IMG/VR virus record: IMGVR_UViG_3300032167_000028
DNA from: a virus
Taxonomy: Duplodnaviria; Heunggongvirae; Uroviricota; Caudoviricetes
DNA: 42,347 nt
Reading direction: 5' to 3' (one strand)
The position numbers and the translations under genes are program-made. The notes under the pieces are model-generated. The model searched no databases and was not told where the DNA came from. It saw only the letters and a list, made by a program, of their open reading frames with translations. Positions 23,000 to 41,327 of the stretch are shown piece by piece (the stretch's first letter is position 1; the number at the start of each line of letters is the position of its first letter).

Positions 23000-23383
23000 T
23001 TACTCATCAATGAAATCTTCAATTAAAATCATTTGAGCAGGAGTAAGATCAATCTTTTCAAGCATGGAAAAATTAATCTTAGAACAATTTAATTCAACCT
23101 TCTCTTCAAGGAAAGCCCGCATTTCAGTGACATAATCTTCAATACCTTCTTTCTTAATAATGTAATTACCCTTTTCATCGGTAGTGAAGGTTCCGTCTTC
23201 ATTCTTGGCACCATAGGTATCGAGCATTTTATGTTGAACCACTTCAATAGATTCATATTCTTTATCAACAAGCTTTAACATTTTCAGAATACTAAATGCC
23301 TCACGAGCTGGCATTGAAGTATTAGCAAGTTTCTAAAGAACTGGCTTAATAGTTAAAAGACTTTCAATAGTTGTCGTAATCAC
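23000..23383 (-). CDS. Hypothetical phage protein, 127 aa (possibly DUF1617-like), 1 in-frame TAG
   Basis: GTG 23383 with GGAG RBS overlaps the upstream TGA (GTGA). One TAG (VLQKLANT) joins the N-terminus to the ORF-track fragment. The family resemblance is by eye only. Confidence 0.65.
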
Positions 23384-24126
23384 AGTATTTCGTCTCCCCA
23401 TTCAAATTGTTTTTTTATAGTAGCAACCTTTGGTACAAATTGCTAAGCAAAGTAATAACCCAAACAAATAGCATCCGCTTCATCCTATGTGGCTTTTATA
23501 TGATACATAAGCCGCACATAATTCTACGCCTATTGTTTAGCATTTTCACGCTCTTCTCCAGAACAAATTCCAAGATATGAACGCCAAGTAGAAGAATAAG
23601 CTAACTTGTTGTCGATTTTCTTTTCATAAAGATAATCTAACAATACACCTTGTAAATTAGCTAGCGTCTAAAACATTTTTACATTCTTCTAATACTGAAT
23701 ATTTTCCACACCTACTGCATCAGGACAAGTTTTTTCTATTACAGAATCAACCCATCTTTTTAATTCATTAATGCGGCCGGTTGAATTAGCAAATTCATTG
23801 GTAGTAAAAGTACCATAATCTACTAATTTTTTATCATCAAAAATTGCGTATCCGGTTGTGCCGGTTGCGGCATCAAGAGCAAGAACTCTCATTCTTGTAT
23901 CTTTACCGCGAGCAGGTAATTTATTTCTTGTTACATTTCCATTAGAAAGTTTTACACACTCTTCGCAAATGTGATGCTTACGCCAATTATCATAAGTATC
24001 ACTAACCTAATGCCCCTTTGGACAAATAAAATTCAAAGGGGTTTTTAAGTTTTTATAAGTAGTAGAGATAAGCTACCATCCAGCCGCCTCTACATCTGAC
24101 TAAACAGTATAAATATTAATTGCCAC
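23380..24126 (-). CDS. ruvC: RuvC-like Holliday junction resolvase with an N-terminal zinc-ribbon domain, 248 aa, 9 in-frame TAG
   Basis: RuvC motifs VLALDAATGTTGYA, VGVE and QDEADAICLG are contiguous only if TAG is read as sense. N-terminal CPKGH...CEEC. GTG start overlaps the dUTPase 3' end; TGA stop at 23382-23380. Confidence 0.82.
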
Positions 24127-24931
24127 TAGAACCGAACCCGCCTTCACCGCGATCGGTGTTTCGTTCTACATTATCAACAACGTGATAACGTGCTTTGTAA
24201 CTCTTTTCAAGTCCCATCTGAACAATTCGATCACCAGCTTTAATTTCAACTGGAATATTACTGAAATTGTCAAACAAAACTTTTAACTCACCACGATAAG
24301 TCTCATCAATCGTACCAGGACTATTGGAAAGACGAAGTGGTGTCTTATGACTCATGCCACTACGAGGACGGAAAGAAATCATCCAACCATGAGGGATTGC
24401 TACTCGTAGACCAGTTGGAACCATGACGCCATAACTACCGGGCTGAATAGTCATATCTTCTACTGCATAAACGTCGGCACCCCAATCAGTATCATGAGCA
24501 TAAGTAGGAAGTTTAGCATTTGGATGACAAAGTTCAACAGCAACATTGAAAATATCACGATTAGTGATCTTATTAATTGCGGTTAAGATGTAAGCTTCAA
24601 TGAGAGACATAAACTCGTCACAGAACTCACACTTATTAGGCTGGTCTTTATACTTTTCCTTAATCTCTTCTATTACACCAGAAAAGAGTTCAACCGTATG
24701 AGATAGTTCCTGAACATATACATCTAATGTAAATCCATTCTTATCTCCTTCAATTAGAAGCTGATCAATTGCTTGTTCTGCTTCAGGGCCTGAATAAGCT
24801 TTAGCGATACTATTGAGTAGCTCTACTTTCATGTCGCCAAAAAGCTCGTCATCCGTATCTTCAAAGATTTTAAGAAGTTCATTCTTAAAACCTTCAATTG
24901 CCTTTAAATTAGTATCAATTACATTATCCAT
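24116..24931 (-). CDS. dut: Trimeric dUTPase with an acidic helical N-terminal extension of about 125 aa
   Basis: Motifs GADVYA, PTGL, RPRSG, SPGTIDETYRGE, GDRIVQ and RGEGGFGSSG. No TAG. Confidence 0.92.
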   Translation of the reverse strand: MDNVIDTNLKAIEGFKNELLKIFEDTDDELFGDMKVELLNSIAKAYSGPEAEQAIDQLLIEGDKNGFTLDVYVQELSHTVELFSGVIEEIKEKYKDQPNKCEFCDEFMSLIEAYILTAINKITNRDIFNVAVELCHPNAKLPTYAHDTDWGADVYAVEDMTIQPGSYGVMVPTGLRVAIPHGWMISFRPRSGMSHKTPLRLSNSPGTIDETYRGELKVLFDNFSNIPVEIKAGDRIVQMGLEKSYKARYHVVDNVERNTDRGEGGFGSSGN

Positions 24932-25890: not shown

Positions 25891-26847
25891 TTAACCTCCG
25901 GCCTTTTGATTATATCCTAATTTTTCAGTAGAGAAGAAATTGATATAATACTTTTCACGTTCATTTAGTTGCTCTTTAGAACATTCTTCAATAAGTTCAA
26001 AAGTAAAATTCCAAATTCCTTCATCGCGCATTGCTTGATGAACTCGCTAGTCCGCGATTGTACTTATACCAACTGAACTTTTTATATGGTCAGTTAAACG
26101 TTTTCTTACAGAAGTCGAACGACCAATATATGCTTGTTTTGTTCTATCATTGGTAATTTTATAAATACCGCTACATTCGCGGCTTGGAAGAATATAATCA
26201 AGCATTTCATTAGCTTTCTTTTGGATATATTCCGACCAAATTAATTTATATAAAATATCGGGATTTCGTAACTCTTCTGCTACATGATTAAGTAAATAAT
26301 TAATGTCAGAACGATCAGAAGAAGATATTTGAATATGACGGTTTAAATCTTTTTCTTCATCACTCTATGAGCGTTGTACTGTTTCAATAACAGAAAGATA
26401 TTTACTTCTTTCACTCTCTAGCTTTGCGTCCATTTGAGCAAGTTCATTTTTTACTTCTTCATTTTTTAGACGCATAAGAGTCTGATGTTGAGTATTTAAT
26501 TCTTGAATCTTTTCAGCAAACTCTTCACAAATTTTTGCTTTTTCAATTTCATTACTATCTCGTACTGTTTGCAACGAAGCTGATAAAGCTTTTAATTCCG
26601 CGGTTTTAGCAGAAATATCTGTTTCAAGTCTTGACAACTCTTCTTGCTTATCAAGATTAAGAGTTTGATACATTGATACCGTAGTTAGGGCATCCGCGAG
26701 ATCTCGCTCAACTTCAGTTAAAGTATCCTGTCGATTCCGAATTTTCTGGTTTAAATTTTGTAAAGTTGTTGTTTTATTATACTTTACGCGATAATAAAAT
26801 GTTGCTGCAATAACTATAATACATAAAATTAAAAGTATTATTCCCAT
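25891..26847 (-). CDS. Membrane-anchored coiled-coil protein with a C-terminal GIY-YIG endonuclease domain, 318 aa, 2 in-frame TAG
   Basis: Hydrophobic N-terminus MGIILLILCIIVIAATFYY and a long heptad region, then after TAG (26367-26365) SGIYKITN...AYIGRS...RKRLTDH...LNEREKYYI...GYNQ. TAATG overlap at the start; the TAA stop lies 1 nt before the next ATG. Confidence 0.85.
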
Positions 26848-27044
26848 TACTTTTTCACCTTTACATATAGCCCGCAGGCACAACTTTCACCCTTTCCGAC
26901 ATTTTCTCGAAAATCTTTACAGGGACATTCGTAGTCAGGATTACCACGTTGTTCGCTATGACTGGGGCAGTATCCATCATTATCTCGCAGAGCAGATTGA
27001 ATAAAATTTACAGTATCTTTGTCACTACTGTATTTGTACTTCAT
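26847..27044 (-). CDS. Ferredoxin:thioredoxin reductase catalytic (beta) subunit-like protein, 65 aa, with variant motifs
   Basis: DGYCPS...ECPCKDF...SCACGLY matches the CPC/CPC/CHC layout of FTR-c. ATG 27044 with GGAG RBS. Confidence 0.75.
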   Translation of the reverse strand: MKYKYSSDKDTVNFIQSALRDNDGYCPSHSEQRGNPDYECPCKDFRENVGKGESCACGLYVKVKK

Positions 27045-27079
27045 AAGGACTCTCCTATATTCCTTTATTCTATACATAT

Positions 27080-27108
27080 ATTATACTTTAAAAAAAATAA
27101 AAAGTCAA
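27080..27108 (-). promoter_or_regulatory. SigmaA/sigma70-type promoter for the FTR-to-GT2 gene run
   Basis: TTGACT-17 nt-TATAAT on the - strand. Confidence 0.85.
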
Positions 27109-27112
27109 ATTT

Positions 27113-27144
27113 CAAAAAAAATAAGAGAGCCGAAGCTCTCTTAT
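27113..27144 (-). terminator. Intrinsic terminator after nrdG
   Basis: ATAAGAGAGC-TTCG-GCTCTCTTAT (cUUCGg tetraloop) followed by a T run on the - strand. Confidence 0.88.
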
Positions 27145-27689
27145 ACTCGGAAGTATACTTCCTCTTCAAAATTTTTAAGTGGTAATTCTTTTTCATCACA
27201 AAATCTATCGACTACACGATTAATTTTTTGATTGGTTGAACCACGCATCAAAAGTGTTACATCTCGCTTATCTTCTTCATATCGGCCATCAATAATGTAA
27301 TCAAACATATAAAGGAAATCGGCAAAATCTGGATGCTCTTTAATTAGTTCTTGTAGTTCTTGAGTTGTAAATCCGGTCCAGAGATAAATCTTAATTTCGT
27401 CTTCGTAATTATCTCGAACTGCCCTAGTAAGACTATAAAGAGGCTCGATATTATGAGATAATAGAGGTTCTCCACCCATAATACATAAATTTCTCATAAC
27501 TCCATTTGCTGTTAAAGCTTCAACGATTTTTTGTTCTGTTTCTTTGGTATATTCATAGCCGCCTTTATGATCCCAAGTTTCAGGATTATGACAACCTTTA
27601 CAATGGAAAGGACAACCCTGAGTGAATAATGTCAAACTTAATCCCGGAGCCGCGGCTGTATCATCATAAATAATTCCTGCATATCGCAT
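27141..27689 (-). CDS. nrdG: Anaerobic ribonucleotide reductase activating enzyme (radical SAM)
   Basis: CPFHCKGC (CxxxCxxC), GGEPL, YIIDGRY and RGSTNQ. Directly after nrdD. Confidence 0.95.
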   Translation of the reverse strand: MRYAGIIYDDTAAAPGLSLTLFTQGCPFHCKGCHNPETWDHKGGYEYTKETEQKIVEALTANGVMRNLCIMGGEPLLSHNIEPLYSLTRAVRDNYEDEIKIYLWTGFTTQELQELIKEHPDFADFLYMFDYIIDGRYEEDKRDVTLLMRGSTNQKINRVVDRFCDEKELPLKNFEEEVYFRV

Positions 27690-27693
27690 AATA

Positions 27694-29955
27694 TTATTCC
27701 TCCATATTACCGGTATGCTTTACACGAGCTTCGGTTTCTTTTTGTTTGCCATAATTAAAAGCAGTTTTATAATTACCAGTTAGATATCCTGTCACTCGGC
27801 GAAGCTGCTGAATATTAGTACTGCCGCATTCTGGGCACTGATTATTAAATTCATCGCAATATCCACAGTCAAGACATGTATCATTTGGTACGTTAATTGC
27901 AAGATATGGAATATCCTTATCCATAGCATAAACAACAATCTGTTCAAGTGCTTTTAGGTTATTCTTAATTCCACTTTCGAGTTCTACATAAGTAATACAA
28001 CCTGCAGAACTATATCCTGTAAGCTGACTTTCAAGGTCGATCTTCTCAAGTACTCCAACTTTCTCCCAGACTGGAACATGAATACTATTGGTAAAATATT
28101 CGTGATCAGAAACATTAGGAATAATACCATACTTATCTTGGAATTTCTTCATAGCAGTGTAGCAAAGATTTTCTGCTGGAGTATAGTATACACCAAAATT
28201 AAGCTTATACTCTTCTTTAAACTCAGCACAACGAGTTTTAAATAACTGCTCAATTCGTTTTGCAAGCTCCATACCCTTTGGAGAGGTATGATTACAACCA
28301 ATTAAAATTTCAAGAGTTTCTGCTAAACCGAGCTGACCAATAACAATTGTGCCGTGCTTTAAGGCAGAACGAATTCCTTCTTTTGGAATATAACCAGCCA
28401 TTAAACCATTTTCATACATAAACTTTGCAGATTCTGGACTCTGGCGGCAAATATATTCAAAGCGTTCAATTAGCATATCTTTTGCTTCATGAATTTTAAT
28501 ATCAAGCATTGCAAGGAATACTTCTTCAAGAGATTCTTCGTTTGCGGCATCTACTTTCCAAAGATTCTTTGCTTCCATAGCAACAGAAGGCATAATAATT
28601 GTTACTGGACAAATATTTCCACGTCCATCCTTTTGCTGACCAAGACCATTTACATCCCAACCATTTGCTGTACGACAACCCATTGTAGAGAAGTAAGTGC
28701 GAGGATCATTCTTATCATATCCGGCATTACCTGTCCAATCAATATTAGCATAGTTGGGATATAGGCGTTTTGCAGTAGACTCTAAAGCTAACTGGAATAA
28801 ATCATAATTTGGATCGCCAGGACGTTTGTTAATTCCTTCTCCAACTTGGAAAATACCACATGGGAAAATTGGAGTACGATGATGTTTACCTACACCTTTT
28901 AGGGAACCTAGAAGTAGAGCTTTAATAATCATCCTACCTTCAGGACTAGTACAAGTACCATAATTGATAGAGGTAAAAGGAAGTTGATTTCCACTACGGG
29001 ATTGAAGAGTATTTAAATTATGATACATACCCTCAACAGCTTGCATAGTTTCTTTTTCTACTTGTTTCATAGCATAATCCCAAGCTTCTGGATGTAACTG
29101 ACGGAAAGCTTCATCTTCAAAATGAACAGTTCCATCCATATGGAGATCATACTTTAACCATCTATAAAAACGATCAATTTTATAGGTTGACTTGTTTTCA
29201 CAATATTCCATACCAGTTGCAAGATGCTTGGTAAAACTCTTACGAAGATAAGGAACCATCGTCCAGTCTAGGTGAGTAGCACTTACTCCACCAAATTGCT
29301 GTAGCGACTGAAGTTGGAAAATAACAGCTAGAAGTTGAAAGGCGGTATCAATACTATTAGCGGGACGAATATCTGCTTGACGAGTATTAAATCCTTTTTC
29401 AAGTAAATGATCAAAAGGTACAGATAAACAATTGTGCATACCAACTGCATAAGCACTTAGATCGTGAATGTAAATATAATTGTTTAAATGGTTATACTTT
29501 GATTTCTCAGACATGCAGAAATTTAAAGCATATTCCTTCATCATAAGGTCAGAAGCTTCTCCCACGCGGCCGCCAAAAGAATGCTCGTCTACATTTGCAT
29601 TTTGATTTTCTACATTTGTTGCCGCGAGTTTACTTCCAATTGCTTCAAAAAAATCTGCCTTATATTCACGGGCAACTTCTTTCTTATAGCGATAGCGAAT
29701 ATATGCTCTTGCAACATTAGCATTATAAACCATCAAAACCATTTCGACAATATCTTGAATATGTTCAACTTCAATGTCACCAGTAAATTCTTTGCAACGA
29801 GTAAATATATCTTCTACTGCATCACAAATTTCTTTATAATTCATGGAAGAATTACCTTCTGCTGATACTTCAAAGGCCGCGGCTTCAATAGCATCATATA
29901 TCTTTTCTTTACTAAAAGTTACTTGCGAACCATCACGTTTAATAACAAAATCCAT
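27694..29955 (-). CDS. nrdD: Class III (anaerobic) ribonucleoside-triphosphate reductase with N-terminal ATP cone
   Basis: VIKRDG ATP cone, HNC and MGCR active-site cysteines, CxxC/CxxC zinc site and glycyl-radical motif RRVTGY. Confidence 0.97.
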   Translation of the reverse strand: MDFVIKRDGSQVTFSKEKIYDAIEAAAFEVSAEGNSSMNYKEICDAVEDIFTRCKEFTGDIEVEHIQDIVEMVLMVYNANVARAYIRYRYKKEVAREYKADFFEAIGSKLAATNVENQNANVDEHSFGGRVGEASDLMMKEYALNFCMSEKSKYNHLNNYIYIHDLSAYAVGMHNCLSVPFDHLLEKGFNTRQADIRPANSIDTAFQLLAVIFQLQSLQQFGGVSATHLDWTMVPYLRKSFTKHLATGMEYCENKSTYKIDRFYRWLKYDLHMDGTVHFEDEAFRQLHPEAWDYAMKQVEKETMQAVEGMYHNLNTLQSRSGNQLPFTSINYGTCTSPEGRMIIKALLLGSLKGVGKHHRTPIFPCGIFQVGEGINKRPGDPNYDLFQLALESTAKRLYPNYANIDWTGNAGYDKNDPRTYFSTMGCRTANGWDVNGLGQQKDGRGNICPVTIIMPSVAMEAKNLWKVDAANEESLEEVFLAMLDIKIHEAKDMLIERFEYICRQSPESAKFMYENGLMAGYIPKEGIRSALKHGTIVIGQLGLAETLEILIGCNHTSPKGMELAKRIEQLFKTRCAEFKEEYKLNFGVYYTPAENLCYTAMKKFQDKYGIIPNVSDHEYFTNSIHVPVWEKVGVLEKIDLESQLTGYSSAGCITYVELESGIKNNLKALEQIVVYAMDKDIPYLAINVPNDTCLDCGYCDEFNNQCPECGSTNIQQLRRVTGYLTGNYKTAFNYGKQKETEARVKHTGNMEE

Positions 29956-29956
29956 T

Positions 29957-30184
29957 TCATTTCACCTCTGAACCGCAGTAGAGACAGCGTCCTCCACGAA
30001 CCATTTTTTCAAAATTACTATTTGTATGAGTACACTGTTTACGTAATTCATTAATTTCTTTACGATAGCGAACAATATCAGTATTAAGTTCAAAATTATT
30101 ACTATCACTTAAAATATTGCGAATCTTCTGTTTACGATTTTCAATTGTCTCATAAATTTCTTCGTTAGTCATGGTATTCTCCAA
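29957..30184 (-). CDS. Small hypothetical protein with a C-terminal CxH...CxxC zinc-binding-like motif
   Basis: QCTH...RCLYCG. Tightly coupled to its neighbours; TGA stop. Confidence 0.7.
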   Translation of the reverse strand: MENTMTNEEIYETIENRKQKIRNILSDSNNFELNTDIVRYRKEINELRKQCTHTNSNFEKMVRGGRCLYCGSEVK

Positions 30185-31230
30185 ATCCCCCTTGTCTGTA
30201 TTAAATCGTTTTTTGTTTTATTAAAGAAAGGTTCAAAAGCAGAATTTTTTTCGATCAGTTCCGCCATTCTTTCTTTTAATTTCTTTGTGCCAAAACTTTG
30301 AGCTAAAGTCATATCATAATCCTCAGAATTTATCCACAAGCGTATTGCATTATAAACATCTTCATAAGGATTAGTTGTGTCATAATGATGGTAAATATCT
30401 GATTTAATAGGTATATTACGAGAATAATAGCTGTATGCTAGATTTAAACAATAAAAAATATTTCGTATATAAAAAGTTTCACTATAAACATCATTTCCAT
30501 AGTTCTTTCCAAGATAAATGCAAACATCTGATGTCTTAGTGATTTCTCCTAACAATTTTAATTTATATTTACCAAAATAAGTTTCTAAATGATGAAGAGG
30601 AACAAAATAGTCTAAAAATATTTTATTATTACGACTTACTTTTTCATAATCTTCTCGTAATGTAAAAAACTGTTTTACTGTATGGCATTGAATTGGCCGC
30701 GTCATGTAAATAGCAGAAGGATTTCTTTCTACTATCTCTTCAATGATTTGCCAACAATCTAAGAGACTAAGAAAATCATTATCATAAATATAAAATCTTT
30801 TTCTCTTTGCCGATGGCGGCAAAGGTAATCTTTTTCCTTCTTGGTCATAACATTTATAATAAATAGAATCTAAAAATTGTAAAGCACGAGAAGTGGATAC
30901 AGTTTTATTTACAATTTTTTCTTGAATAATATCATTGTAAATAGTTGTATCTGGAATCATATGTTCTGCAAGTTTTGGAATGGGATTTAAATACAGTCCA
31001 TATAATTCTACATTAGAATATTGAAATATTTCTTTTGGAAGTTTATCAATTATCCAATCACTAAAGAAACATACTCGTTCATAATGTTCAATATTTTCCA
31101 TTGTTTGTAGTAAAACTACATAATCACTTTGTGTGCTTTTTAAATAAGCCGCCATTTTCATGGCTGACAACGAAGGAGGCGGTAAGCCTCTCTTCGCCAT
31201 CAGTAATTCATAATCTATGATACCAATCAT
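30169..31230 (-). CDS. Degenerate radical-SAM-family-like protein lacking CxxxCxxC, 353 aa
   Basis: The N-terminus IGIID...PSLSAMKMAAYLK, plus EHMIPDTTIY and FYIYDNDFL, resembles the IGLID/FPNLALMKISAYHK/HIYPDYSLY radical-SAM family as recalled from memory. No Cys triad is present. ATGA overlap with dnaE. Confidence 0.5.
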   Translation of the reverse strand: MIGIIDYELLMAKRGLPPPSLSAMKMAAYLKSTQSDYVVLLQTMENIEHYERVCFFSDWIIDKLPKEIFQYSNVELYGLYLNPIPKLAEHMIPDTTIYNDIIQEKIVNKTVSTSRALQFLDSIYYKCYDQEGKRLPLPPSAKRKRFYIYDNDFLSLLDCWQIIEEIVERNPSAIYMTRPIQCHTVKQFFTLREDYEKVSRNNKIFLDYFVPLHHLETYFGKYKLKLLGEITKTSDVCIYLGKNYGNDVYSETFYIRNIFYCLNLAYSYYSRNIPIKSDIYHHYDTTNPYEDVYNAIRLWINSEDYDMTLAQSFGTKKLKERMAELIEKNSAFEPFFNKTKNDLIQTRGIWRIP

Positions 31231-34200
31231 TCTTCATCATACCTCTTGTCGGTATATGTAAAATGCTTTCCTTCAACTGAAGTAATTTTCATAATTGGAA
31301 TACGATGCAAACTATTCTTATAAGCTTTTGGAATAAAAGCATCTCCACGACGAATACCTTGTAGATATAATAAGTTGCCGCGGCTAAACCAAGACTTCTC
31401 TCGAACCTTCTTTTTACCATCAAGTTGGATTTCAGAAATCTGTTTATCATATTTAGCAAACTGATTCTTCCAAATCTTAACGGTTACAACTCCTGTTGGA
31501 GTTAAAAGTGTAACAGAATTTTTCAACTTATTTTTATCCAAAACTGTACCACAAATACAGTTAAGTTCAAACAATTGAATAAATTTGCCATCTTTTGTAG
31601 GGATAGTTCTTTCAATTACTGGTTCAGTTGGTAAAGAATTAAAATCTACAATATTGTACGCAATTGGATCAACTTTTTCAAGTTCATGCTCATGATAATA
31701 GAAAGACATAGATTCAATTTCATAATGAGAAATTGTACCTTTGGCATAGTTTTCAAATTGTTCTTGAATTAATGCCTCATTTAATTTACTAAGTAAATCA
31801 TCCATATTTTCTTTAATAAATACAGATAACGGAGCAATCTCTTTTTTATAAATTTTCTCCCAAGTCTTTACTGCAATACTCGTACCATCTAAAAGCAAGT
31901 CTACATCAAAACGATTACAGAAATAAGTTAAAGCTTTTTCTGGGAAGATAATTTTATCATCAACAATGTGCTTTCTCAAAAAACGATTATAAGCATATAG
32001 TTCACAAAATTCAGAAGCTTCTTCGTCCAAAATATGATACTTCATAAGCATTGGAACATTTGCAAGAGTAAGTTTTTCTTTGGTCTGTGCTTTTGTGGCA
32101 AGATAAGTTTCAATTATCTTCATACGATCTGGATACAAATTATCAAAAGCACCACACTTCAAAAGATTCAGCATTTGAGTTCGATTAACCTTAACCTTAT
32201 GCTGAAAATCTTCAATAGATTCATATGGTCTATTTGCGATAATTTGATTTACCAAATCCGCAGAGATACGAGTGATATTTCTTAGGCCGCTAGCAATACT
32301 ATTTTCTTCTACCAGTGGAGTAAAAGTGAAACCACTTTTATTAATATCTGGAGGAGTAATTTTAATACCTGCGGTCTGAAAACGACCAATTGCAGTTGCA
32401 ATTTTACCAAAGTTAATACTCTTTGTTTTCTTCTTTTTCTTCTTTACGTTCTGTTCAGGAATATCTTCATACTCAAATTCTTCCCATTCTTCTGGTTCAT
32501 AAATATCAACAATTTCTTCGGAATCTTCTGGAGCATCTTCAAGTTCGACAACAATACACTCATCATCGCCCTCTTCGGTTTCCTCTTTACCTGCACTATC
32601 TACAATAAGATTTGCGGTATTCCAGAAAATAATTGGATACTTATATGCCAGATTCATCTCTTGTAAAGCAACAAGAGAATAGGCAAGACAGTGACTGCGG
32701 TTGAATGAATAACCACGCTGAACTTTAAGCATTACATCCCAGACATAATGAACTAATTTATCATCACAATTACTATCCTGTGCGTTCTTAAAATAAGTTC
32801 TTTCACATTCATCAAAGATGGCACCAATCTTTTTTGCTAGACCTTTACGACACTTATCAGCAAAAGTTAGATCATTTCCTCCCAGCTTTGGTTCCTGTAC
32901 AAGAGACATTAGACCTTCTTGAGATTCACAAATACCATCAGTAATTGCACTATGGTTACTCAACCAATTGATATTTTCTTCAGATAATCCATATACCCGC
33001 ATCTCACGGACCCAAGCACCCGGATGTTTACGATAACGCGCCCACATTTCAAGCGGCTGTTCCGCACCCTTTTCTGGAGCCATTAGACGAATAACAGAGT
33101 TAAGAACCGCAAGGTCATTAACGTTCTTTGGTTTAGAAAGAGCAATACCCTGAAGACCACTTTGCTGTTCCATCTGGAAAAGACTTACAATTTCATGATC
33201 CCAAATTTTCTTCCACATTTTTGGATCATCTCGTTCGATATTATAAATACCAATAACTTTTTCATAAGTCTCTTTTAAAGTTGCTTCTGGTTTAACATAA
33301 CCATATTCCTGAAGAAGTTCAAGACAAACCTGAATTCTATCCATGCCTTCAACAGAAAGAGCATCATATTTGATAAGACTACATTCTTCAAGGTCATGAA
33401 GCTCGAATGCACTAATAATGGTTCCATCAGGTGCTCGCATTAACGCGGCCGTATTCGTAAAAGGTTCATCGTTAAAAACAATACCACCTGCGTGAATACC
33501 TACACCACAAATTAATCCTTCGATCTTTTGAGCAATTCTCCAAAGATCTGGATGAGTATCCATTTCCTGAACGAAAGTAGAACTTGGTGCAATACCATCT
33601 TTTTCACTTCCATAATACATCTTCTTTAAAGAATAAAGCTGACCACGTTCAGAAGTAATTAAAGATGCAAAATATTGTCCATCTTCTGGTGGCATATTTA
33701 AACCACGAGCCGCGGTAAGAATTGCACTCTTAGACTTTTCAGTTCTAAAAGTTGCAACATTACAAACACGATCTTCGCCATAAACCTTACGAAGATGTTC
33801 AAGTACCTGTCCACGCTTTAAACCAGAAATATCAAAGTCAATATCAAGAACAGAAACACGTTTTGGATTTAGAAAACGCCATGGAAAACACTTTGTCGTT
33901 TCACGTAAACAATTCATCTGAATAATATCCAGACAATATAGAAGTACAAAGCCACCACCAGAACCACGAGCACAACCAACGATTGTACCTGCATTCCAGC
34001 ATTCCTCAATAATTTTTTGAAGATTCAAATAATATGCACTCCACTGTGCATTATTAACTTCACTTGAAATCCATGTCATTTCAAGACACTCTTCCAAAGC
34101 CGCGTATGCTTCGTCGTTCTGAAGATCGGAATGCTTCTTAATACCTGCAATAGTTGCATATACAAGTTCATTATCCGCTACATGAGGAGAATCAATAAAC

Positions 34201-35225
34201 TTCTGTAAAGTTGGCATTTTACTTACATAATAATCTAAGTCGGAGACATTATGCTCATAATTTATCCAAGGCAAACATGGAATACGGAGCGGCCTTTTAA
34301 TTGTATATTCCTGACAAGCTTCTGCAATATTATGAATATTTTCGTAAGCTTTTTGAAGAACTGACTTTTCAAAATATGAAAAATAAGATTCAAGTTCTTC
34401 CGTTCCCATCATATAAGTCGTTTCATAGAAAGATCTAACCTCACGATCACCATCTTGAGAATTAAGATATTTTTCATGAATATAAGCATCTTCCTTCTTT
34501 AGATAGTGACTATCAGTTGTGATGATATAAGGAATACCAAGCTCCGCACTAATCTGCTGAATATAAATATTTACACATTCTTGGTCAAGATTTTTAGAAG
34601 GTTGCATTTCAAGATAGAAGTTACCTTCTCCAAAAATTCCTACCATATATTGGCACCAATTAAGTGCTGTCTCCCAATATTTAGTATCTCCAGTGTCTCT
34701 AAACTTCAATAAAAATTTCGGGAGCTGTCCACCAAGACATGCGGTAGAACCAATAATATGACCCGGATTTTTGCCAATAATATCTTTCAAATCCTGATAA
34801 TAGGTCGGTACTCGACGCATACGACGAGAAACAAATGAACGTTTCCACGCCCTTGTGGAAAGTTCACAAAGTTGATGATAGCCTTCAATATCTTTAGCAA
34901 GGAGTATAAAATGATAATAATCATCGCCCTTATCCTTGTTAAAATTGCTGCCATTCAACTTATTACGAGTAAGATAAATTTCATTACCACGAATGATTTT
35001 AATCTTATCTTTTACTTTAATATTATTTTCTTTGTCAAGAACTTTTTCTCCATAGTTCTCAACCTGAATAAAACTAGAAAGAGTTTCGTGGTCAGTAATG
35101 GCCACGCACTCATGTCCTAGTTCAATTGCATAATCAATCAAGTCAGAGATTTTATTGATACAATCTCGCAGACGATTATTACTATGATCTGTGTGATTGT
35201 GTACGCTTCCAGGATATCTTCTCAT
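31227..35225 (-). CDS. dnaE: DNA polymerase III alpha subunit (DnaE-type, family C) with PHP domain
   Basis: PHP residues HNH, ITDH, GNE, TACLGG and TTDSHY; catalytic DIDFD and KYDAL; HAGG, GYSFNRSH and a C-terminal OB fold. No TAG in 1,332 codons. Confidence 0.96.
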   Translation of the reverse strand: MRRYPGSVHNHTDHSNNRLRDCINKISDLIDYAIELGHECVAITDHETLSSFIQVENYGEKVLDKENNIKVKDKIKIIRGNEIYLTRNKLNGSNFNKDKGDDYYHFILLAKDIEGYHQLCELSTRAWKRSFVSRRMRRVPTYYQDLKDIIGKNPGHIIGSTACLGGQLPKFLLKFRDTGDTKYWETALNWCQYMVGIFGEGNFYLEMQPSKNLDQECVNIYIQQISAELGIPYIITTDSHYLKKEDAYIHEKYLNSQDGDREVRSFYETTYMMGTEELESYFSYFEKSVLQKAYENIHNIAEACQEYTIKRPLRIPCLPWINYEHNVSDLDYYVSKMPTLQKFIDSPHVADNELVYATIAGIKKHSDLQNDEAYAALEECLEMTWISSEVNNAQWSAYYLNLQKIIEECWNAGTIVGCARGSGGGFVLLYCLDIIQMNCLRETTKCFPWRFLNPKRVSVLDIDFDISGLKRGQVLEHLRKVYGEDRVCNVATFRTEKSKSAILTAARGLNMPPEDGQYFASLITSERGQLYSLKKMYYGSEKDGIAPSSTFVQEMDTHPDLWRIAQKIEGLICGVGIHAGGIVFNDEPFTNTAALMRAPDGTIISAFELHDLEECSLIKYDALSVEGMDRIQVCLELLQEYGYVKPEATLKETYEKVIGIYNIERDDPKMWKKIWDHEIVSLFQMEQQSGLQGIALSKPKNVNDLAVLNSVIRLMAPEKGAEQPLEMWARYRKHPGAWVREMRVYGLSEENINWLSNHSAITDGICESQEGLMSLVQEPKLGGNDLTFADKCRKGLAKKIGAIFDECERTYFKNAQDSNCDDKLVHYVWDVMLKVQRGYSFNRSHCLAYSLVALQEMNLAYKYPIIFWNTANLIVDSAGKEETEEGDDECIVVELEDAPEDSEEIVDIYEPEEWEEFEYEDIPEQNVKKKKKKTKSINFGKIATAIGRFQTAGIKITPPDINKSGFTFTPLVEENSIASGLRNITRISADLVNQIIANRPYESIEDFQHKVKVNRTQMLNLLKCGAFDNLYPDRMKIIETYLATKAQTKEKLTLANVPMLMKYHILDEEASEFCELYAYNRFLRKHIVDDKIIFPEKALTYFCNRFDVDLLLDGTSIAVKTWEKIYKKEIAPLSVFIKENMDDLLSKLNEALIQEQFENYAKGTISHYEIESMSFYYHEHELEKVDPIAYNIVDFNSLPTEPVIERTIPTKDGKFIQLFELNCICGTVLDKNKLKNSVTLLTPTGVVTVKIWKNQFAKYDKQISEIQLDGKKKVREKSWFSRGNLLYLQGIRRGDAFIPKAYKNSLHRIPIMKITSVEGKHFTYTDKRYDEE

Positions 35226-35253
35226 TCACTTTACTCCTTCCTTAATTAATTAT

Positions 35254-35282
35254 ATTATAACACAATTTTTATAAATTATCAA
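35254..35282 (-). promoter_or_regulatory. SigmaA-type promoter upstream of dnaE
   Basis: TTGATA-17 nt-TATAAT with an extended TG. The -35 box overlaps the recJ TGA stop. Confidence 0.8.
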
Positions 35283-37012
35283 AATTCATAAGTCGTGTCA
35301 GTCATTTCATAATCATCAATTAAAATTTGTGGTGTAGTGCGGCCAGCCCAAGTATTCTTTTTAATCTTTCCATAAACAGTGATGGTGCCGCGTTCATATG
35401 CTTTACATTCTTGAGCAAAGTCACTATCCTTAAAACGTACATATTCTACACCATTATGAGTGAATTTACAAGAATCTTTATTCTCACCCATTAAGAACCA
35501 TTGTTCGCTACAATAAGGAACATCTTTTACAACAACAACCGGTTCTTCAATATCATTACCCCATAGTTCTGGGTGTTCAGCAATTTGTAATAAAATATCA
35601 CCGAAGTTTTCATTATCATTAAATATATAGTCTACATAATAGACATTGGCTAAACCTTCATCGGAAATATTACTGTTAGCATATTCAAGAAGTTTTTCAA
35701 GATTAGATTCATGAATACTACAGCCGGCTGCATTAGGATGTCCCTGTACATATTCTACAAGTTCACTACCTTCGAGGAAAGCCTTAAAATCTGGAACCTC
35801 TGAGAAAGAATCGTTGCCACGCATTGAACCACGAAGATATCCTTCAGAGTTCTTTGCTACAATTGCACAAGGACGATGATAACGATTTACGAACTGAGTA
35901 CAAATTAAACCTCGAAGTTCTTGTGGAATATTATCTTTATCATTTACCTCAACAATAAGAATCTTATTATCAAGAAGAGCATATTTCTGAATTCTCATAT
36001 CAAGAAGTTCAGTAGATTTTTCCTTAATACGATTCTGTCGATTACGAGCATTGGAAGCACGACGAGCCATTTCTACGCAGGTTTCTTCCATATCTCCCGC
36101 TTTTGCTCCACGTTTATCGGTTTGAATAAGTTCGTGTGGATTAATAAAAGCATTAAACAGTAAACGCTTTTCTTCCATTGTTCCAACGCGTACAATAGCG
36201 TTTAGAAGTGGAACGATATAGAAAGCAACATTGATATAGCCCAGCTCTTTTGTTTCTTTAAACAGGGAATAAGACTGCTGATTAATAAAAGCTTTAAAGC
36301 CATCATTATTAATCTTCTTTAAACCTTCTGTAATATAATATCGAGTTTCTGGATGCTTCATGCTCATACAGTCAGCAACATTTGCAAGAGCACATAAATC
36401 CATATATTTCTCACAATAGCCACTATCACCAAACTTATCGTCCATTACCATAAGAAATTTATAGACTACACCAGCACCACAAAAATATTTATTAGAATAA
36501 TTCTTAGATAACTGATTATTTACTACAACTGCATATGGGCTATATGAATCCGCGTGGTGGTGATCAAGAACAAGAACTTCTTTTCCTACCTCTTGTAGTC
36601 GTCTATGTTCTTCAATATCAAAGCTACTGGCATCAGGAAGAATGATTAAGTCATAATCACTTTCAATTACATCTTCAATAATATCATCAAGACCATGAGC
36701 TTTATGTTCGTGGCATACATATTCAAGTCTTGCTTTTGGATAAAAATCCTTTATATAAAGCCACATCATCGCGGCACTACAAATACCATCTGTGTCAGCA
36801 TCTTGTACAATAAGAATACTACTATCATTTTCAAGATGCTTAAAAAGTAAATCCGCGGCTTCAGAGATATTATCAAGTAGATAAGGGTCTAACTCATATT
36901 CTTTGCTGGGATTTATATATCCTTCAATATTTTCAACTCCTCGTGCTGTAAGAAGTTCGACTAAACAATTCTCTGGAGAATGAGTAAGGTTATACTTTAA
37001 CTTATAGTTCAT
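35279..37012 (-). CDS. recJ: RecJ-like single-stranded DNA exonuclease (DHH/DHHA1)
   Basis: QDADTDG, LPDAS, LDHHH, GAGVVYK, ANVADCM, GSMRG and GHPNAAG. Confidence 0.9.
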   Translation of the reverse strand: MNYKLKYNLTHSPENCLVELLTARGVENIEGYINPSKEYELDPYLLDNISEAADLLFKHLENDSSILIVQDADTDGICSAAMMWLYIKDFYPKARLEYVCHEHKAHGLDDIIEDVIESDYDLIILPDASSFDIEEHRRLQEVGKEVLVLDHHHADSYSPYAVVVNNQLSKNYSNKYFCGAGVVYKFLMVMDDKFGDSGYCEKYMDLCALANVADCMSMKHPETRYYITEGLKKINNDGFKAFINQQSYSLFKETKELGYINVAFYIVPLLNAIVRVGTMEEKRLLFNAFINPHELIQTDKRGAKAGDMEETCVEMARRASNARNRQNRIKEKSTELLDMRIQKYALLDNKILIVEVNDKDNIPQELRGLICTQFVNRYHRPCAIVAKNSEGYLRGSMRGNDSFSEVPDFKAFLEGSELVEYVQGHPNAAGCSIHESNLEKLLEYANSNISDEGLANVYYVDYIFNDNENFGDILLQIAEHPELWGNDIEEPVVVVKDVPYCSEQWFLMGENKDSCKFTHNGVEYVRFKDSDFAQECKAYERGTITVYGKIKKNTWAGRTTPQILIDDYEMTDTTYEF

Positions 37013-38121
37013 TTGATTTTAATCCGCCTCTTCATTAAATACTCTAGTTTTTCTTGTCCTTGATCGCAAGGAGCATCCTTCTTATTTAAGATATTCTGTT
37101 CGTCAAAAATATAATAGAAACTAGCCATCCCGCGATACTTTTCACATTTACTTATTAACTTTTTTCTATAATTCATTCCTTCTTCAGAGAAGCAATGATC
37201 ATATTCCTTGTCATAGGCAAGGATGATTTCATTTACACCTAATTCTTGAATAAGAAGATTAATTTGAAATCGATTTAATTGAGAGCCACATGTTGCAACT
37301 GCCACACTATATGGACCATAGTAAGCAGAATCTTTCAGAACAGATTTTTCTCCCTCATAAATAACAACTCGTTTAGTTCTTTGAATTGCCTTTTTATGCT
37401 CCCAAATACCATACAAATTAAATCCCAGCTGATGATTAAACATTTTTTCGCCAATTTGAGCTGGACGATATTTACCATATACCAAATCTTCTTCATCAAT
37501 TGCACGCGTACGAATACCAATTAATCGTCCGCTAATATCATAATGAGGAATAATAATTCGATTAGTTCCATAAGAGAATCGAATATTGAATAGACTTTGG
37601 ACATCACTGGTGATTCCTTCCATTTCCCATAAAGGATGGCTAAATGGGACGAAATAATCTAGTGCATATTTATTAACCTCCGGTAAGGTAATAATAGATT
37701 GCCGTGGAAGTTCTTTTTCAGTTTCCCAAGAAACAATTTCAACTGGTCGAATATCTTTTTCTTCAACATCAATAAATTGTTTTAAATAATATAAGGCTTC
37801 ATCATAAGAAACTTCTTGATGATTAATTGCCATATATTTTTGATAAAGTACAATAATATTAAAGTTTTCGCTACATTCTGTATAGCAATGAAAACTTTTA
37901 TTTAAATTATAATAATAAAGCTTCATACTTTCTGCTTCGTCAATTGGATTATGACAAATTGTTGGGCAGACAATATAGTCAGTATGAATTTCTAAGTTAT
38001 CTACTCCTAAACTTCTTAGAAATAACACAACTTTATCAATTGTAAAACTACTAATAATAGTTTTTACATCCAATGAATTTTTTACTGCAAGTTCATCATA
38101 GAAACCATCAGTTTTACACAT
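37009..38121 (-). CDS. DnaG-like DNA primase
   Basis: Zn-binding CPTICH...HCYTEC, IIIPHYD..GRLIGIRTR, and TOPRIM EGEKS and ILAYD. Confidence 0.88.
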   Translation of the reverse strand: MCKTDGFYDELAVKNSLDVKTIISSFTIDKVVLFLRSLGVDNLEIHTDYIVCPTICHNPIDEAESMKLYYYNLNKSFHCYTECSENFNIIVLYQKYMAINHQEVSYDEALYYLKQFIDVEEKDIRPVEIVSWETEKELPRQSIITLPEVNKYALDYFVPFSHPLWEMEGITSDVQSLFNIRFSYGTNRIIIPHYDISGRLIGIRTRAIDEEDLVYGKYRPAQIGEKMFNHQLGFNLYGIWEHKKAIQRTKRVVIYEGEKSVLKDSAYYGPYSVAVATCGSQLNRFQINLLIQELGVNEIILAYDKEYDHCFSEEGMNYRKKLISKCEKYRGMASFYYIFDEQNILNKKDAPCDQGQEKLEYLMKRRIKIK

Positions 38122-39728
38122 TAAAATTCATCATCTGCTTTCTCTTCAAAATTTGGATTAGGGCAATCAATTGGAATGGTTTTTAAGAAATCTTTAGTCA
38201 CCCAAACTTCCTCACCTGGAAGTGGAGGAATAAATTCATATTCTTTCATCGGTATAAGATTATATTGTTCATCTGTCATAAAGAGATCAACCTTAAAGCC
38301 TGTACCTAAATTTATTTTAGACCAGATACGGCAACCCTTATAAGTACCATTACGTAACTTATAAATATCTGTAACATGTGTTGGAGAACCATATTCTTTA
38401 ATTAGTTCGTGTATCTGCTCAAGTTCTGTTGGATCAACTTTTGCAATAAGACAACCTACATCACACTTATCTGCAATCGCTTTTGAACCACGAAGATTTC
38501 TCTGATCTCGTTTTTCACCGACTTTTAAACCATCACCATTAACCTGAGTACTAGTCATGACAAACACATTATAATTGGCTGCGATTTCTTTTAACTGATT
38601 AGACAACATACCAAGTGCTACATCTTCTCGAATACCACTTGAACTAAATTGAGAAATCAAAGACGGAGAAGAAAAGATATAGTCATAAAAAACATAGCCA
38701 ACATCATTAAGTAAAACATGCTTTTTGATTACTGTTTGAACATTATTGAGGTTTGGATCTTCAATAGATTCCAAAATAAAGTAATTACTATACTTATCAA
38801 TAATGTCTAAGGCAATTGCAATTCTCTTCTTTTCTGCCGCGGTACAAGCGTTTAATTTAATTACCTGCTCTTCTACTCCTGCTACATAAGCTAGAATAAT
38901 AGTTTGAATTTCCTTTGCTTTCATCTCAGTGGTAATAAAAAGAACTTTCTGAGGTTCTTTATCTCTCACCCACACAAAGCTTTGTTTTGCCTCATCAAAA
39001 TGAATTGGAAATACAATACTGCAAGCATCAAATACTGACCAGCGAGTTTTACCAACGTTTGTACCACCAGAACGAAGATACATCTTTCCTCGAATGGCTC
39101 CGCGAACAACAGAATTATAATACGCACCATTTAATTCTGGACCAATTTCTGGAGCCTGTGCAAGTTCTTCAAGTAGCTCACGAAGTCCTTCATTCGCACG
39201 AATATAACCACTTGTACCATAAGTATGTCGTGAACGAATAGAAGAAAAAGATTTTTCTACATATGCAAGAATATCTTCTTCAGTCGCTTCTTCATATCGT
39301 GTAATACAATCAAATTCCTGTTTACTTCCGGGTGGTGCCTCTTCTACATCATATGGAGAAATATCATAACCATGAAGTTTAAGATCTCGTAGAAGAGAGT
39401 TCTTTTTTAATCTATTATAAAATGCCGTGAAATTTTCAGGCTGTCCTTTATCCAAACACATCATAACAAACTCTCGTCCATTATATCGACGATAAGTTTG
39501 CTGAAATGTTGGATAATCTTGCAGATATGCCTCAATTGTTACTGCGTTGATTTTTACTGTACCACTATCAATCAAATTAGAAAGAGAAAAATAAATAACT
39601 CTCGCAATTTGGTTTTCTTGGCTAAAGTCATCAATAGCAATCGGCATAGGCAAACTGCTTAATACTGAAGGCTCTTTCATAATACTTCCTAGAACCTGGC
39701 AGTATAAATCAGTATTATTAAAAGTCAT
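38121..39728 (-). CDS. Replicative DnaB/SF4-like DNA helicase
   Basis: Walker A GGTNVGKT, FITTEM, VFYDYI, LKEIAA...TSTQVN and LRGSKAIADK. Confidence 0.88.
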   Translation of the reverse strand: MTFNNTDLYCQVLGSIMKEPSVLSSLPMPIAIDDFSQENQIARVIYFSLSNLIDSGTVKINAVTIEAYLQDYPTFQQTYRRYNGREFVMMCLDKGQPENFTAFYNRLKKNSLLRDLKLHGYDISPYDVEEAPPGSKQEFDCITRYEEATEEDILAYVEKSFSSIRSRHTYGTSGYIRANEGLRELLEELAQAPEIGPELNGAYYNSVVRGAIRGKMYLRSGGTNVGKTRWSVFDACSIVFPIHFDEAKQSFVWVRDKEPQKVLFITTEMKAKEIQTIILAYVAGVEEQVIKLNACTAAEKKRIAIALDIIDKYSNYFILESIEDPNLNNVQTVIKKHVLLNDVGYVFYDYIFSSPSLISQFSSSGIREDVALGMLSNQLKEIAANYNVFVMTSTQVNGDGLKVGEKRDQRNLRGSKAIADKCDVGCLIAKVDPTELEQIHELIKEYGSPTHVTDIYKLRNGTYKGCRIWSKINLGTGFKVDLFMTDEQYNLIPMKEYEFIPPLPGEEVWVTKDFLKTIPIDCPNPNFEEKADDEF

Positions 39729-39739
39729 ATGCCTACTCC

Positions 39740-40222
39740 TTATACTTTACTTGGATCAATTTTTAAACGACTTGCTCGTTTACTATTATAGTTTGGCCGC
39801 ACTGTTTTAGTTGGCATTGTTTTCATTTCTGCAATCGCCTTTACAGTTTGTGCCTGTCTTTCTCTTAAAGATTGATAATATTGTTTTGCTTTATCTATAT
39901 AATCGGGTACATAATACAAGGTTGGAGTATAAATTGTAATGCGTTGAATATCATACATATAATGCAGAACCGCGGTGATATTTTTATATGAAAGTCCATG
40001 GTTTTCTTTTAACCGCTTAATCTGTGCAAATAATTTTTCATCCAATTTACTGATACTAAAGATACGGCAAATCTCTTTATATAAAAAATCATGATCTTCT
40101 TTTTCTTTTTCTTTAGATAAAAAAGAAGTGTAACATGTTTGATTACAAAAACAAATATCCTTGCCATTATAAACAATCATTTGTTTTTCATCTACAAGCT
40201 TTTTACACGTTGCACATCTCAT
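39740..40222 (-). CDS. Zinc-finger protein, possibly a helicase loader or initiator
   Basis: CATC...FCNQTC. First gene after the 40246-40274 promoter, directly upstream of the helicase. The function is inferred only. Confidence 0.6.
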   Translation of the reverse strand: MRCATCKKLVDEKQMIVYNGKDICFCNQTCYTSFLSKEKEKEDHDFLYKEICRIFSISKLDEKLFAQIKRLKENHGLSYKNITAVLHYMYDIQRITIYTPTLYYVPDYIDKAKQYYQSLRERQAQTVKAIAEMKTMPTKTVRPNYNSKRASRLKIDPSKV

Positions 40223-40245
40223 ACATATTCCACCTTTCTTATTTA

Positions 40246-40274
40246 ATTATATCATAATTTTTCACAATTGTCAA
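40246..40274 (-). promoter_or_regulatory. Consensus sigmaA-type promoter for the Zn-finger/helicase/primase/recJ genes
   Basis: TTGACA-17 nt-TATAAT with an extended TG. Confidence 0.9.
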
Positions 40275-40300
40275 AAATAAAACCCTATCTTTCGATAGGG
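40273..40300 (-). terminator. Intrinsic terminator after the ATPase gene
   Basis: CCCTATC-GAAA-GATAGGG followed by TTTTATTTTT on the - strand (GNRA loop). Confidence 0.85.
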
Positions 40301-40307
40301 AATATTT

Positions 40308-41300
40308 TTACAGTAGCTTCTTTAAATCTTCAATTACCAACTCAACCATATCCTGCTGTTCAGGAGTAGCCTTGGAAAGCTGCATATCATGACTGAAAAC
40401 ATTTACAACCGCAGTGCGAAGCTTTTCACGTCCATCCTCTGGATAAGTTGCTAGAATCTTATTCCAAAGTGCCTTTGCCTCTGCCATTGTTTCATCAAAG
40501 GGACGCTTTGTTGCAACAAAACCATAATCTACATCAGTAGAGTTAATAATGTTCGTGCCAGTCATATTAGCTTCCTTTTCCATTGCTTCAGCCATTGCAT
40601 CAACAAGCTCCTGATAACCAAGTGGAATTCGTGGAGCAAGATAACGATAACGAGAACCGGCGAAAATGGTAGGAGTACCACGAGTGTAAAGATAACGACT
40701 AGAAGCACCGCTTTTAATGTCGTACTCAACACCAATATAACCAATAACGTCAACCATGCGGTTTACAATTTGATAAGCTGCATTTGGAAGATCTGGAGCA
40801 AGAGCATCTAGCTCATTACCCTCTTCATCAGTATACTCAGTCTTCTTGGTCTTAGAGTGAGCGATAAATACAAGAGCATAACCAAGCTGAGTTAGTTCAC
40901 GGAAAGTTGTTTCAAACTCGTCCTTGAGCATACCCCAACCTTTACCGTAACCAATGTCACCAATTGCCTGCACACCCTCACGATTTAGGATATACTTCTC
41001 ACAAAGAGAATATGCAATTGCAACAGTGTCGATAACTACTGTCTCGTAAGCTTCCTTAACTTCTGGCTTCTTTAGCTGGCGGCAAACCTGCTTAAAATCT
41101 GCCCAAGAAGTAATATCAACTGGACGAACACCAACTAGACCATTATAGCCCTTCTCGAATGCTACAAGAAGTGGCTTTGGCCACATCGCGGACATACTGG
41201 TCTTGCCACTCTTAGCCTGACCATATAGCATAATAAAACGACCGCGTAGATCCTTACAAAGCTGTGTGGGCTGAATATTTAATAGATCAATAACTGCCAT
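40308..41300 (-). CDS. Sak4-like/AAA_24 P-loop ATPase (probable single-strand annealing/recombination protein)
   Basis: Walker A GQAKSGKT, LLVAFEKG, VVIDT, GYGKGW, FIAHS and DVIGY. Adjacent to the SSB gene. Confidence 0.8.
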   Translation of the reverse strand: MAVIDLLNIQPTQLCKDLRGRFIMLYGQAKSGKTSMSAMWPKPLLVAFEKGYNGLVGVRPVDITSWADFKQVCRQLKKPEVKEAYETVVIDTVAIAYSLCEKYILNREGVQAIGDIGYGKGWGMLKDEFETTFRELTQLGYALVFIAHSKTKKTEYTDEEGNELDALAPDLPNAAYQIVNRMVDVIGYIGVEYDIKSGASSRYLYTRGTPTIFAGSRYRYLAPRIPLGYQELVDAMAEAMEKEANMTGTNIINSTDVDYGFVATKRPFDETMAEAKALWNKILATYPEDGREKLRTAVVNVFSHDMQLSKATPEQQDMVELVIEDLKKLL

Positions 41301-41327
41301 TTTCTTTCTCCTTTAAGGTCAATGAAA

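Follow-up and report, generated by a model that had tools for sequence, protein, structure and literature searches.

SNIPE (PD-lambda-1) of Escherichia coli is a nuclease bound to the membrane, where it cuts phage DNA as that DNA is injected; its N-out transmembrane helix is followed by a DUF4041 domain, then by another helix and a GIY-YIG nuclease, and the protein turns toxic when the transmembrane segment is deleted (Saxton et al., Nature 2026, PMC13190303). For phages that read a stop codon as sense, recoding has been proposed as a form of translational timing, and an early-region endonuclease was described as preferentially recoded and hence made late (Borges et al., preprint, 10.1101/2021.08.26.457843); recoding-as-timing is a published hypothesis that is still without direct experimental support. 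Here, we analysed a gene on which both lines of work bear. It lies at positions 25891-26847, on the minus strand, of a 42,347-nucleotide stretch (hereafter, the window) of the virus record IMGVR_UViG_3300032167_000028 (Caudoviricetes), and it encodes a GIY-YIG nuclease that is predicted to be tethered to the membrane and carries two in-frame TAG codons. We favour, with a probability of roughly 0.7, the reading that the gene has a single selected product, a 318-amino-acid single-pass nuclease of the inner membrane that would be gated by TAG and may act against incoming DNA.

Reading frame and selection across the TAG codons

Once TAG is taken as sense, the minus strand of window positions 25891-26847 holds one 318-codon frame ending in TAA, with in-frame TAGs at codon 161 (26367-26365) and codon 267 (26049-26047). 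Under translation table 11, the same gene yields 160 amino acids from the ATG or 172 from an upstream TTG, followed after TAG161 by two short open reading frames (ORFs) of 52 and 46 amino acids in the same frame. A sequence-only reading of this stretch had set out the frame, the positions of the TAGs and the 160- versus 318-amino-acid products, and all of its coordinates are correct; its proposal of a membrane-anchored nuclease that reaches full length only under recoded decoding is likewise borne out by frame analysis and hydropathy. The gene is made up of the following features, each given with its basis.

25891..26847, minus strand: whole nuclease gene, 318 codons plus TAA, with TAG read as Gln
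26791..26844, minus strand: N-terminal transmembrane helix, residues 2-19, predicted N-out/C-in (hydropathy, Lys/Arg bias)
26368..26790, minus strand: alpha-helical stalk of about 140 residues, residues 20-160, probable coiled coil (AlphaFold2, heptads, composition)
26365..26367, minus strand: TAG codon 161, at the end of the long helix (read from the sequence)
26182..26361, minus strand: conserved helical mid-module, residues 163-222 (invariant columns, AlphaFold2 helices)
25894..26172, minus strand: GIY-YIG catalytic domain of I-TevI type, residues 226-318 (Pfam, PHROG, Foldseek)
26047..26049, minus strand: TAG codon 267, in an invariant Gln column of the STIADQ motif (alignment)

Over codons 162-318, the gene differs from a 95% identical relative by 34 synonymous and 3 non-synonymous changes, for a ratio of non-synonymous to synonymous substitution rates (dN/dS) of 0.017; over codons 1-160, the ratio is 0.145. 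With a dN/dS of 0.017 past TAG161, the portion that follows the apparent stop is the most strongly selected part of the gene. Two relatives, at loci L019 (63% identical over the C-terminal part) and L021, have no TAG and encode the same architecture in an uninterrupted ORF; these genes (L019:5593-6579 and L021:5554-6552) reside on contigs binned into Oscillospiraceae and Bacilli metagenome-assembled genomes (MAGs), and their RuvC-like neighbours are also free of TAG; being written in the standard code, they offer natural versions ready for expression. The low dN/dS past TAG161 and the uninterrupted standard-code relatives together rule out a pseudogene or two separate ORFs.

We recovered the DNA of about 20 relatives and mapped their TAGs onto the numbering of the window gene. 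The relatives carry 0-12 TAGs per gene, scattered and located mainly in the stalk, and the window gene, with two, is among the least TAG-marked examples of the family. Column 267 is Gln in 121 of 121 proteins. Near relatives and standard-code relatives write it as CAG or CAA, and five separate lineages write it as TAG, with TAG267 recurring independently in L006/7, L008, L010 and L023; judged by these alignments, the column behaves as a synonymous Gln position at which TAG, CAG and CAA interchange.

Residue composition points in the same direction. In the RuvC-like gene, described below, the residues opposite TAG columns are Gln in 33% of cases versus a background of 4% (8-fold), and in the nuclease gene in 16% versus 5% (3-fold), with Glu the next most enriched residue in the latter (19% versus 11%, 1.7-fold). 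TAG thus likely stands for Gln in this phage, and both TAGs of the nuclease gene are most likely ordinary Gln codons.

Protein architecture and predicted topology

Full-length homologues of the nuclease are 299-345 amino acids long. The transmembrane-like N-terminal helix seen in the sequence-only reading is well supported, with a Kyte-Doolittle 19-residue mean of 2.6 at residues 1-19 and a transmembrane helix in 103 of the 109 close full-length homologues and in 135 of 139 representatives (mutual identity <=50%). The mean count of Lys and Arg around these helices is 0.1-0.4 before them and 3.8-4.4 in the 15 residues after them, a bias that by the positive-inside rule would place the nuclease in the cytoplasm. 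The predicted topology is therefore a membrane anchor at the N terminus with the C-terminal part in the cytoplasm, and the family as a whole appears to be almost always anchored in this N-out/C-in manner.

An AlphaFold2 model built from a 45-sequence alignment, with a mean predicted local distance difference test score (pLDDT) of 87, contains a single continuous helix over residues 2-160 (pLDDT 88-96) and a break at 161-162. Past the break come helices 163-169, 176-192 and 197-219 and then a nuclease core (227-304) with the order beta-beta-alpha-alpha-beta-alpha, formed by strands 227-233 and 239-244, helices 247-259 and 268-276, strand 281-286 and helix 296-304. The stalk is the least conserved part of the protein and is rich in Glu, Lys, Gln and Leu; its enrichment at the a and d heptad positions is only moderate, and against Pfam it gives only weak coiled-coil matches. 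What had been described as a coiled coil of about 140 residues thus holds as a long helix, and the coiled-coil label is deduced from the length and amphipathic character of that helix, the heptad signal being just moderate. By ordinary helix geometry, the stalk would span about 20 nm. The mid-module has invariant residues D181, K201, L202, W204 and E206 and matched no Pfam family, DUF4041 included.

The C-terminal part matches Pfam PF01541 (GIY-YIG) at residues 226-307 with an E-value of 1.8e-7, exceeding the gathering score, and PHROG homing-endonuclease families match the same stretch (best 1.9e-19). The GIY (227-229) and YIG (240-242) motifs have the 10-11-residue spacing of the GIY-YIG superfamily, and an alignment of 45 diverse sequences shows no variation at Y229, Y240, G242, R250, H254, E298 and N313. 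TAG267 falls between the invariant R250 and E298, in agreement with the earlier description of a complete GIY-YIG domain bearing a TAG between its conserved Arg and Glu. In Foldseek searches, the best solved structure is the catalytic domain of I-TevI (1ln0; E 3.4e-4, TM-score by target 0.56), which corresponds to residues of about 226-318, followed by UvrC (E about 0.03), with T4 EndoII (2wsh) a weak match (E about 1). Only three entries of the AlphaFold DB and BFVD, namely A0A843GN52, A0A345BPZ2 and A0A8S5RTR9, match over the full length; all other matches in these databases cover the nuclease core alone. Because the protein stops about 10 residues past the core, it has no DNA-recognition tail. 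The active site is intact, and cleavage of DNA is predicted from motif and fold.

Genome context and recoding

The window comes from a complete virus record of 174,462 bp, and the phage is a complete, TAG-recoded, 174-kb SPbeta-like phage, whose DNA polymerase shares about 35% identity with SPbeta YorL. Reading through TAG alone raises the coverage of the window by ORFs of >=100 amino acids from 58% to 97%, and no comparable gain is seen, by the same measure, for readthrough of TGA or TAA. Genes in the plus-strand block of the window (1-21970) have 3 to 31 in-frame TAGs each. The minus-strand block at 27141-42312, which encodes a DnaB-like helicase, a primase, a RecJ-like exonuclease, a YorL-type DNA polymerase, NrdD and NrdG, has none. 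A search of the phage genome for a release-factor gene found none. The genome contains 35 tRNA genes, one of them with the anticodon CTA, and it is by this tRNA(CUA) of its own that the phage would read TAG.

Another tRNA of this genome deserves mention as a separate observation. At G000:C1:138339-138433, ARAGORN reports in its default run an irregular 95-nt tRNA with a two-base 'anticodon', which becomes a Leu(TAG) tRNA with a 9-nt intron if introns are allowed.

Relatives of the nuclease gene in MAGs are confined to Firmicutes (Oscillospiraceae, Christensenellaceae, Acutalibacteraceae, Erysipelotrichaceae and Bacilli), and Clostridia have been predicted as hosts of the phAss-1 group (PMC10607447). 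The phage of the window probably infects gut Clostridia.

Gene neighbourhood and proposed TAG gating

Upstream of the nuclease gene, three elements are relevant to its expression.

26855..26860, minus strand: Shine-Dalgarno-like AGGTGA, 7 nt before the ATG (read from the sequence)
27080..27108, minus strand: sigma-70-like promoter match TTGACT-17-TATAAT, 11/12 (consensus match; the total for the region is not above that of shuffles)
27121..27144, minus strand: terminator-like hairpin with a T-run after nrdG (10-bp stem, 4 GC pairs)

The nuclease ATG shares bases with the TAA of the gene before it (TAATG), which suggests translational coupling to a 76-amino-acid gene (26847-27077) resembling the beta subunit of ferredoxin-thioredoxin reductase (FTR). 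The promoter match at 27108-27080 is the best sigma-70-like match on the strand, and the hairpin at 27144-27121 divides the nrdDG unit from that of the nuclease gene. As both precede the 76-amino-acid ORF, the nuclease gene apparently shares a unit with TAG-free genes; the TAG counts along this unit, in transcription order, are 0, 2, 0, 0, 0, 0, 10, 1 and 7.

The slot formed by NrdD, NrdG, a small ORF and the nuclease gene, and further on by dUTPase and RuvC, is kept in relatives down to about 33% identity. Down to that same level, the nuclease gene contains TAGs, while NrdD, NrdG, the FTR-beta-like ORF, a 65-amino-acid ORF and dUTPase have essentially none; the RuvC-like gene is TAG-rich too in recoded relatives. 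Using Fisher tests of TAG versus CAA+CAG in the nuclease gene and in its pooled neighbours, we found the nuclease gene to be TAG-enriched in 11 recoded loci (p 1e-4 to 0.02). The loci L019, L021 and L001, which have no recoding signal, have zero TAG in either nuclease. Across recoded relatives, the conserved feature is that the nuclease gene has at least one TAG and its co-transcribed replication and nucleotide-metabolism neighbours have none. Since the TAGs are in the nuclease gene and absent from these neighbours, its translation probably has to wait for suppression to take effect, and the published precedent of a recoded early-region endonuclease lends support to such gating. We therefore infer that suppression gates the nuclease in time.

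Several neighbouring genes have features of their own. The ORF at 26847-27077 (minus strand), of 76 or 65 amino acids, is Cys-rich, owes its name to an FTR-beta-like Pfam match (E 1.3e-5) and stands directly upstream of the nuclease gene in many relatives. In-frame TAGs number 10 in the gene for the RuvC-like resolvase, at window positions 23380-24273 (minus strand), and almost every recoded relative has a TAG-rich version of it. Its long frame, started at a TTG, shares about 158 nt with the end of dUTPase and shows weak HNH-like PHROG matches at residues 61-116; the assignments of its start and of its N-terminal domain are tentative. A free-standing 186-amino-acid GIY-YIG gene or an HNH gene divides nrdD in some relatives (P0036 contig; L016:1-3000), unlike in the window, where nrdD is intact.

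Family size and annotation

The family is large, with 857 clusters at 50% identity found at E 1e-30 or better, and its 150th match is still full length (E 8e-56). None of the deposited or cultured phage records covers >=80% of the protein, the best being phAss-1 (OQ749652.1; L018:4581-5561). This phage has a full family copy, with transmembrane helix, stalk and GIY-YIG domain and with 8 TAGs; two tRNA-Sup-CTA genes and nrdD/nrdG follow directly downstream. In the deposit, only a 145-amino-acid C-terminal fragment and a 46-amino-acid piece are annotated, as hypothetical proteins. Standard-code annotation fragments the gene, and a family of at least 857 clusters is thus largely invisible in public annotation. 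Our literature searches found no description of the family, and a query for phage proteins combining transmembrane, coiled-coil and GIY-YIG elements returned only SNIPE-related papers. It is in the family that the interest lies: a real, conserved membrane-tethered phage nuclease within a known kind of recoded genome.

Alternative explanations

The sequence-only reading had attached particular weight to the amber at the domain junction, proposing a programmed two-isoform gene in which a 160-amino-acid anchored stalk before the code switch and a 318-amino-acid tethered nuclease after it would both be functional. TAG161 is indeed present in six of the six genomes of the near clade (90-96% nucleotide identity), it sits exactly at the break that ends the long helix in the AlphaFold2 model, and translation before suppression would necessarily give the 160-amino-acid product. 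Nevertheless, retention at this level of identity is what any single, synonymous-type site is expected to show, and two of the 19 Gln-type codons fall within 5 residues of the junction, so that by an arithmetic estimate one of two TAGs would land there by chance about once in five times. When homologues were compared, as that reading had suggested, no amber or other stop was kept at column 161 in relatives outside the near clade; the column is variable (Q, T, E, I or L), the first TAG of other lineages falls at codons 21-87, standard-code relatives run through without a stop, and the scatter of TAG positions is the random pattern that had been named beforehand as speaking against two isoforms. 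Nor do the relatives show a fixed-position stop dividing two functional modules, as would be expected of a dual-product gene. On these comparisons, the placement of TAG161 at the stalk/linker boundary appears to be chance, a recent clade-specific substitution; the claim of a junction amber serving two isoforms is not supported, and we consider it very improbable. A 160-amino-acid fragment may arise in the near clade before suppression, without indication of selection. Still further from credible is the idea that a mobile GIY-YIG homing endonuclease of the usual kind landed after a gene for a small membrane protein, the fusion being apparent or accidental. Its appeal is that I-TevI and the PHROG and PADLOC 'homing endonuclease' families are the nearest matches of the catalytic domain and that genuine homing endonucleases interrupt nrdD in some relatives; against it, position and full architecture are constant to about 33% identity and over 857 clusters, strong purifying selection extends across the linker, and the protein has no C-terminal DNA-binding domain. 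We found no NUMOD, IENR or helix-turn-helix domain in the protein, no Rfam intron within 7 kb of the gene and no flanking repeats around it. Synteny, conservation of the whole architecture and the lack of DNA-binding domain, intron and repeats rule this origin out, consistent with the sequence-only reading, which had set the gene apart from the usual free-standing or intron-borne phage homing endonucleases by its membrane anchor. The gene is syntenic in all relatives and has neither a DNA-binding tail nor an intron signature.

If the gene has one product, the target of that product is the next question, and by analogy we would rank superinfecting DNA first, host DNA second and a joint role with RuvC in processing the DNA of the phage itself third. 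Degradation of host DNA in the manner of T4 endonuclease II (DenA), for salvage or host shut-off and with the tether sparing replication centres, would suit a nuclease that has no sequence-recognition domain and whose gene has nrdD, nrdG and dUTPase in its vicinity in every relative, and T4 EndoII is itself a GIY-YIG enzyme that appears among the weak structural matches. That match is not significant, however, T4 EndoII is soluble and early, a tether of about 20 nm restricts reach into the bulk nucleoid and no mechanism protecting the phage genome was identified, so that we regard this target as unlikely. Some Firmicute phages organise their replication at the membrane, and p16.7 of phi29 combines transmembrane, coiled-coil and DNA-binding parts in a layout that the window protein may resemble. 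The nuclease might act late and at the membrane on DNA of the phage itself and, with the RuvC-like resolvase, trim or resolve intermediates of replication before packaging; both TAG-bearing genes in the early-type operon encode nucleases, and RuvC is TAG-rich in the same relatives. This role seems less likely again, as the protein has no homology to p16.7, nor to structure-specific GIY-YIG enzymes such as SLX1 or UvrC beyond the common core, and packaging genes are not adjacent.

The favoured reading, a TAG-gated nuclease of the inner membrane directed against incoming DNA, also has points that weigh against it. In the window itself, the TAG bias is weak (2/19 versus 1/109; Fisher test, p = 0.057), and a lone TAG can gate only if suppression is truly delayed. 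Genes for superinfection exclusion are as a rule early ones, a poor match for a product that is delayed. The only tRNA(CUA) of the genome is unusual, being 98 nt long with a long extra arm (G000:C1:165322-165419); its acceptor stem and G73 are identical to those of the phage tRNA-Gln(UUG), and its anticodon arm differs from that of the neighbouring tRNA-Ser(CGA) by a single G-to-T change. It looks like a chimera and does not by itself reveal the amino acid inserted at TAG. Moreover, the dimeric coiled-coil form of the stalk is conjectural, and any functional parallel with SNIPE would have to be drawn from layout.

Proposed mechanism and significance

Under the favoured reading, the N terminus would lie outside, and the stalk, the helical module and the I-TevI-type GIY-YIG nuclease would lie in the cytoplasm. 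The gene would be transcribed alongside early-type genes, and its product would be completed only once suppression is active, which amounts to a gate in time, while the anchor would hold the nuclease at the membrane, a gate in space. There, on its stalk at the inner face, a nuclease with little sequence specificity could cut DNA that appears at this site, most plausibly that of an incoming superinfecting phage by analogy with SNIPE; this assignment of the target is the weakest step of the scheme. The delay would also spare the genome of the phage itself as it enters.

Carried further, this scheme would mean that a very large lineage of gut and rumen phages of Firmicutes independently built a SNIPE-like device from other components (a transmembrane anchor, a rigid stalk and an I-TevI-type nuclease) and retained it as a core gene. 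The code switch would complete it after entry of their own genome, and it would then destroy DNA arriving later through the membrane, a form of superinfection exclusion; this proposal we regard as doubtful at present. If true, it would imply that phages, like bacteria, use subcellular position to tell self from non-self DNA, by means of an unrelated set of domains. The gene also offers a clean natural case for the proposal that stop-codon recoding sets, for each gene of one operon, when its protein is made.

Comparison with known systems

The window protein shares with SNIPE a single N-out transmembrane helix, an elongated cytoplasmic middle and a C-terminal nuclease of the GIY-YIG superfamily, as well as spatial confinement as a possible means of sparing self DNA. 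The outline of clostridial DUF4041 proteins with a transmembrane segment at residue 2 followed by a coiled coil is very similar. The two differ in that the phage nuclease has no DUF4041 domain and is of the PF01541 I-TevI type instead of T5orf172/MUG113, and in that it is a syntenic and presumably TAG-gated core gene in an operon of the phage lytic module, whereas SNIPE belongs to bacterial or prophage defence. DUF4041 (PF13250) gave no match to the protein at E up to 10 and none in a six-frame scan of the genome, and genuine members score 1e-14 to 1e-23 with the same model. Similarly, hhalign of the family profile against eight genuine DUF4041-T5orf172 proteins from Clostridia genomes returned a probability of 2.3%, with only the coiled coil aligned. 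The Pfam search, the six-frame scan and the profile-profile comparison thus rule out homology to SNIPE and DUF4041, making the protein a SNIPE analogue on an I-TevI-type core and not a member; the two layouts are probably convergent. PADLOC returned generic homing-endonuclease models and weak UzuA and coiled-coil matches and assigned no defence system.

The catalytic core shares the GIY, YIG, Arg, Glu and Asn motif set with I-TevI of the T4 td intron (PDB 1ln0, 1mk0). I-TevI, however, is intron-borne and mobile, with an N-terminal catalytic domain, a linker and a C-terminal DNA-binding domain, whereas the catalytic domain of the phage nuclease is C-terminal, after the transmembrane helix and stalk, and its gene has a fixed position and no intron. 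As for the genome, late-gene TAGs, a TAG-free replication block and a phage-encoded tRNA(CUA) are traits in common with code-15 (TAG-to-Gln) gut phages whose early genes keep the standard code (Borges; Peters, PMC9523058; phAss-1, PMC10607447). The precedent of Borges, in turn, concerns an intron endonuclease in TGA-recoded Agate phages; here, the recoded enzyme is a core-gene nuclease that is predicted to be tethered to the membrane.

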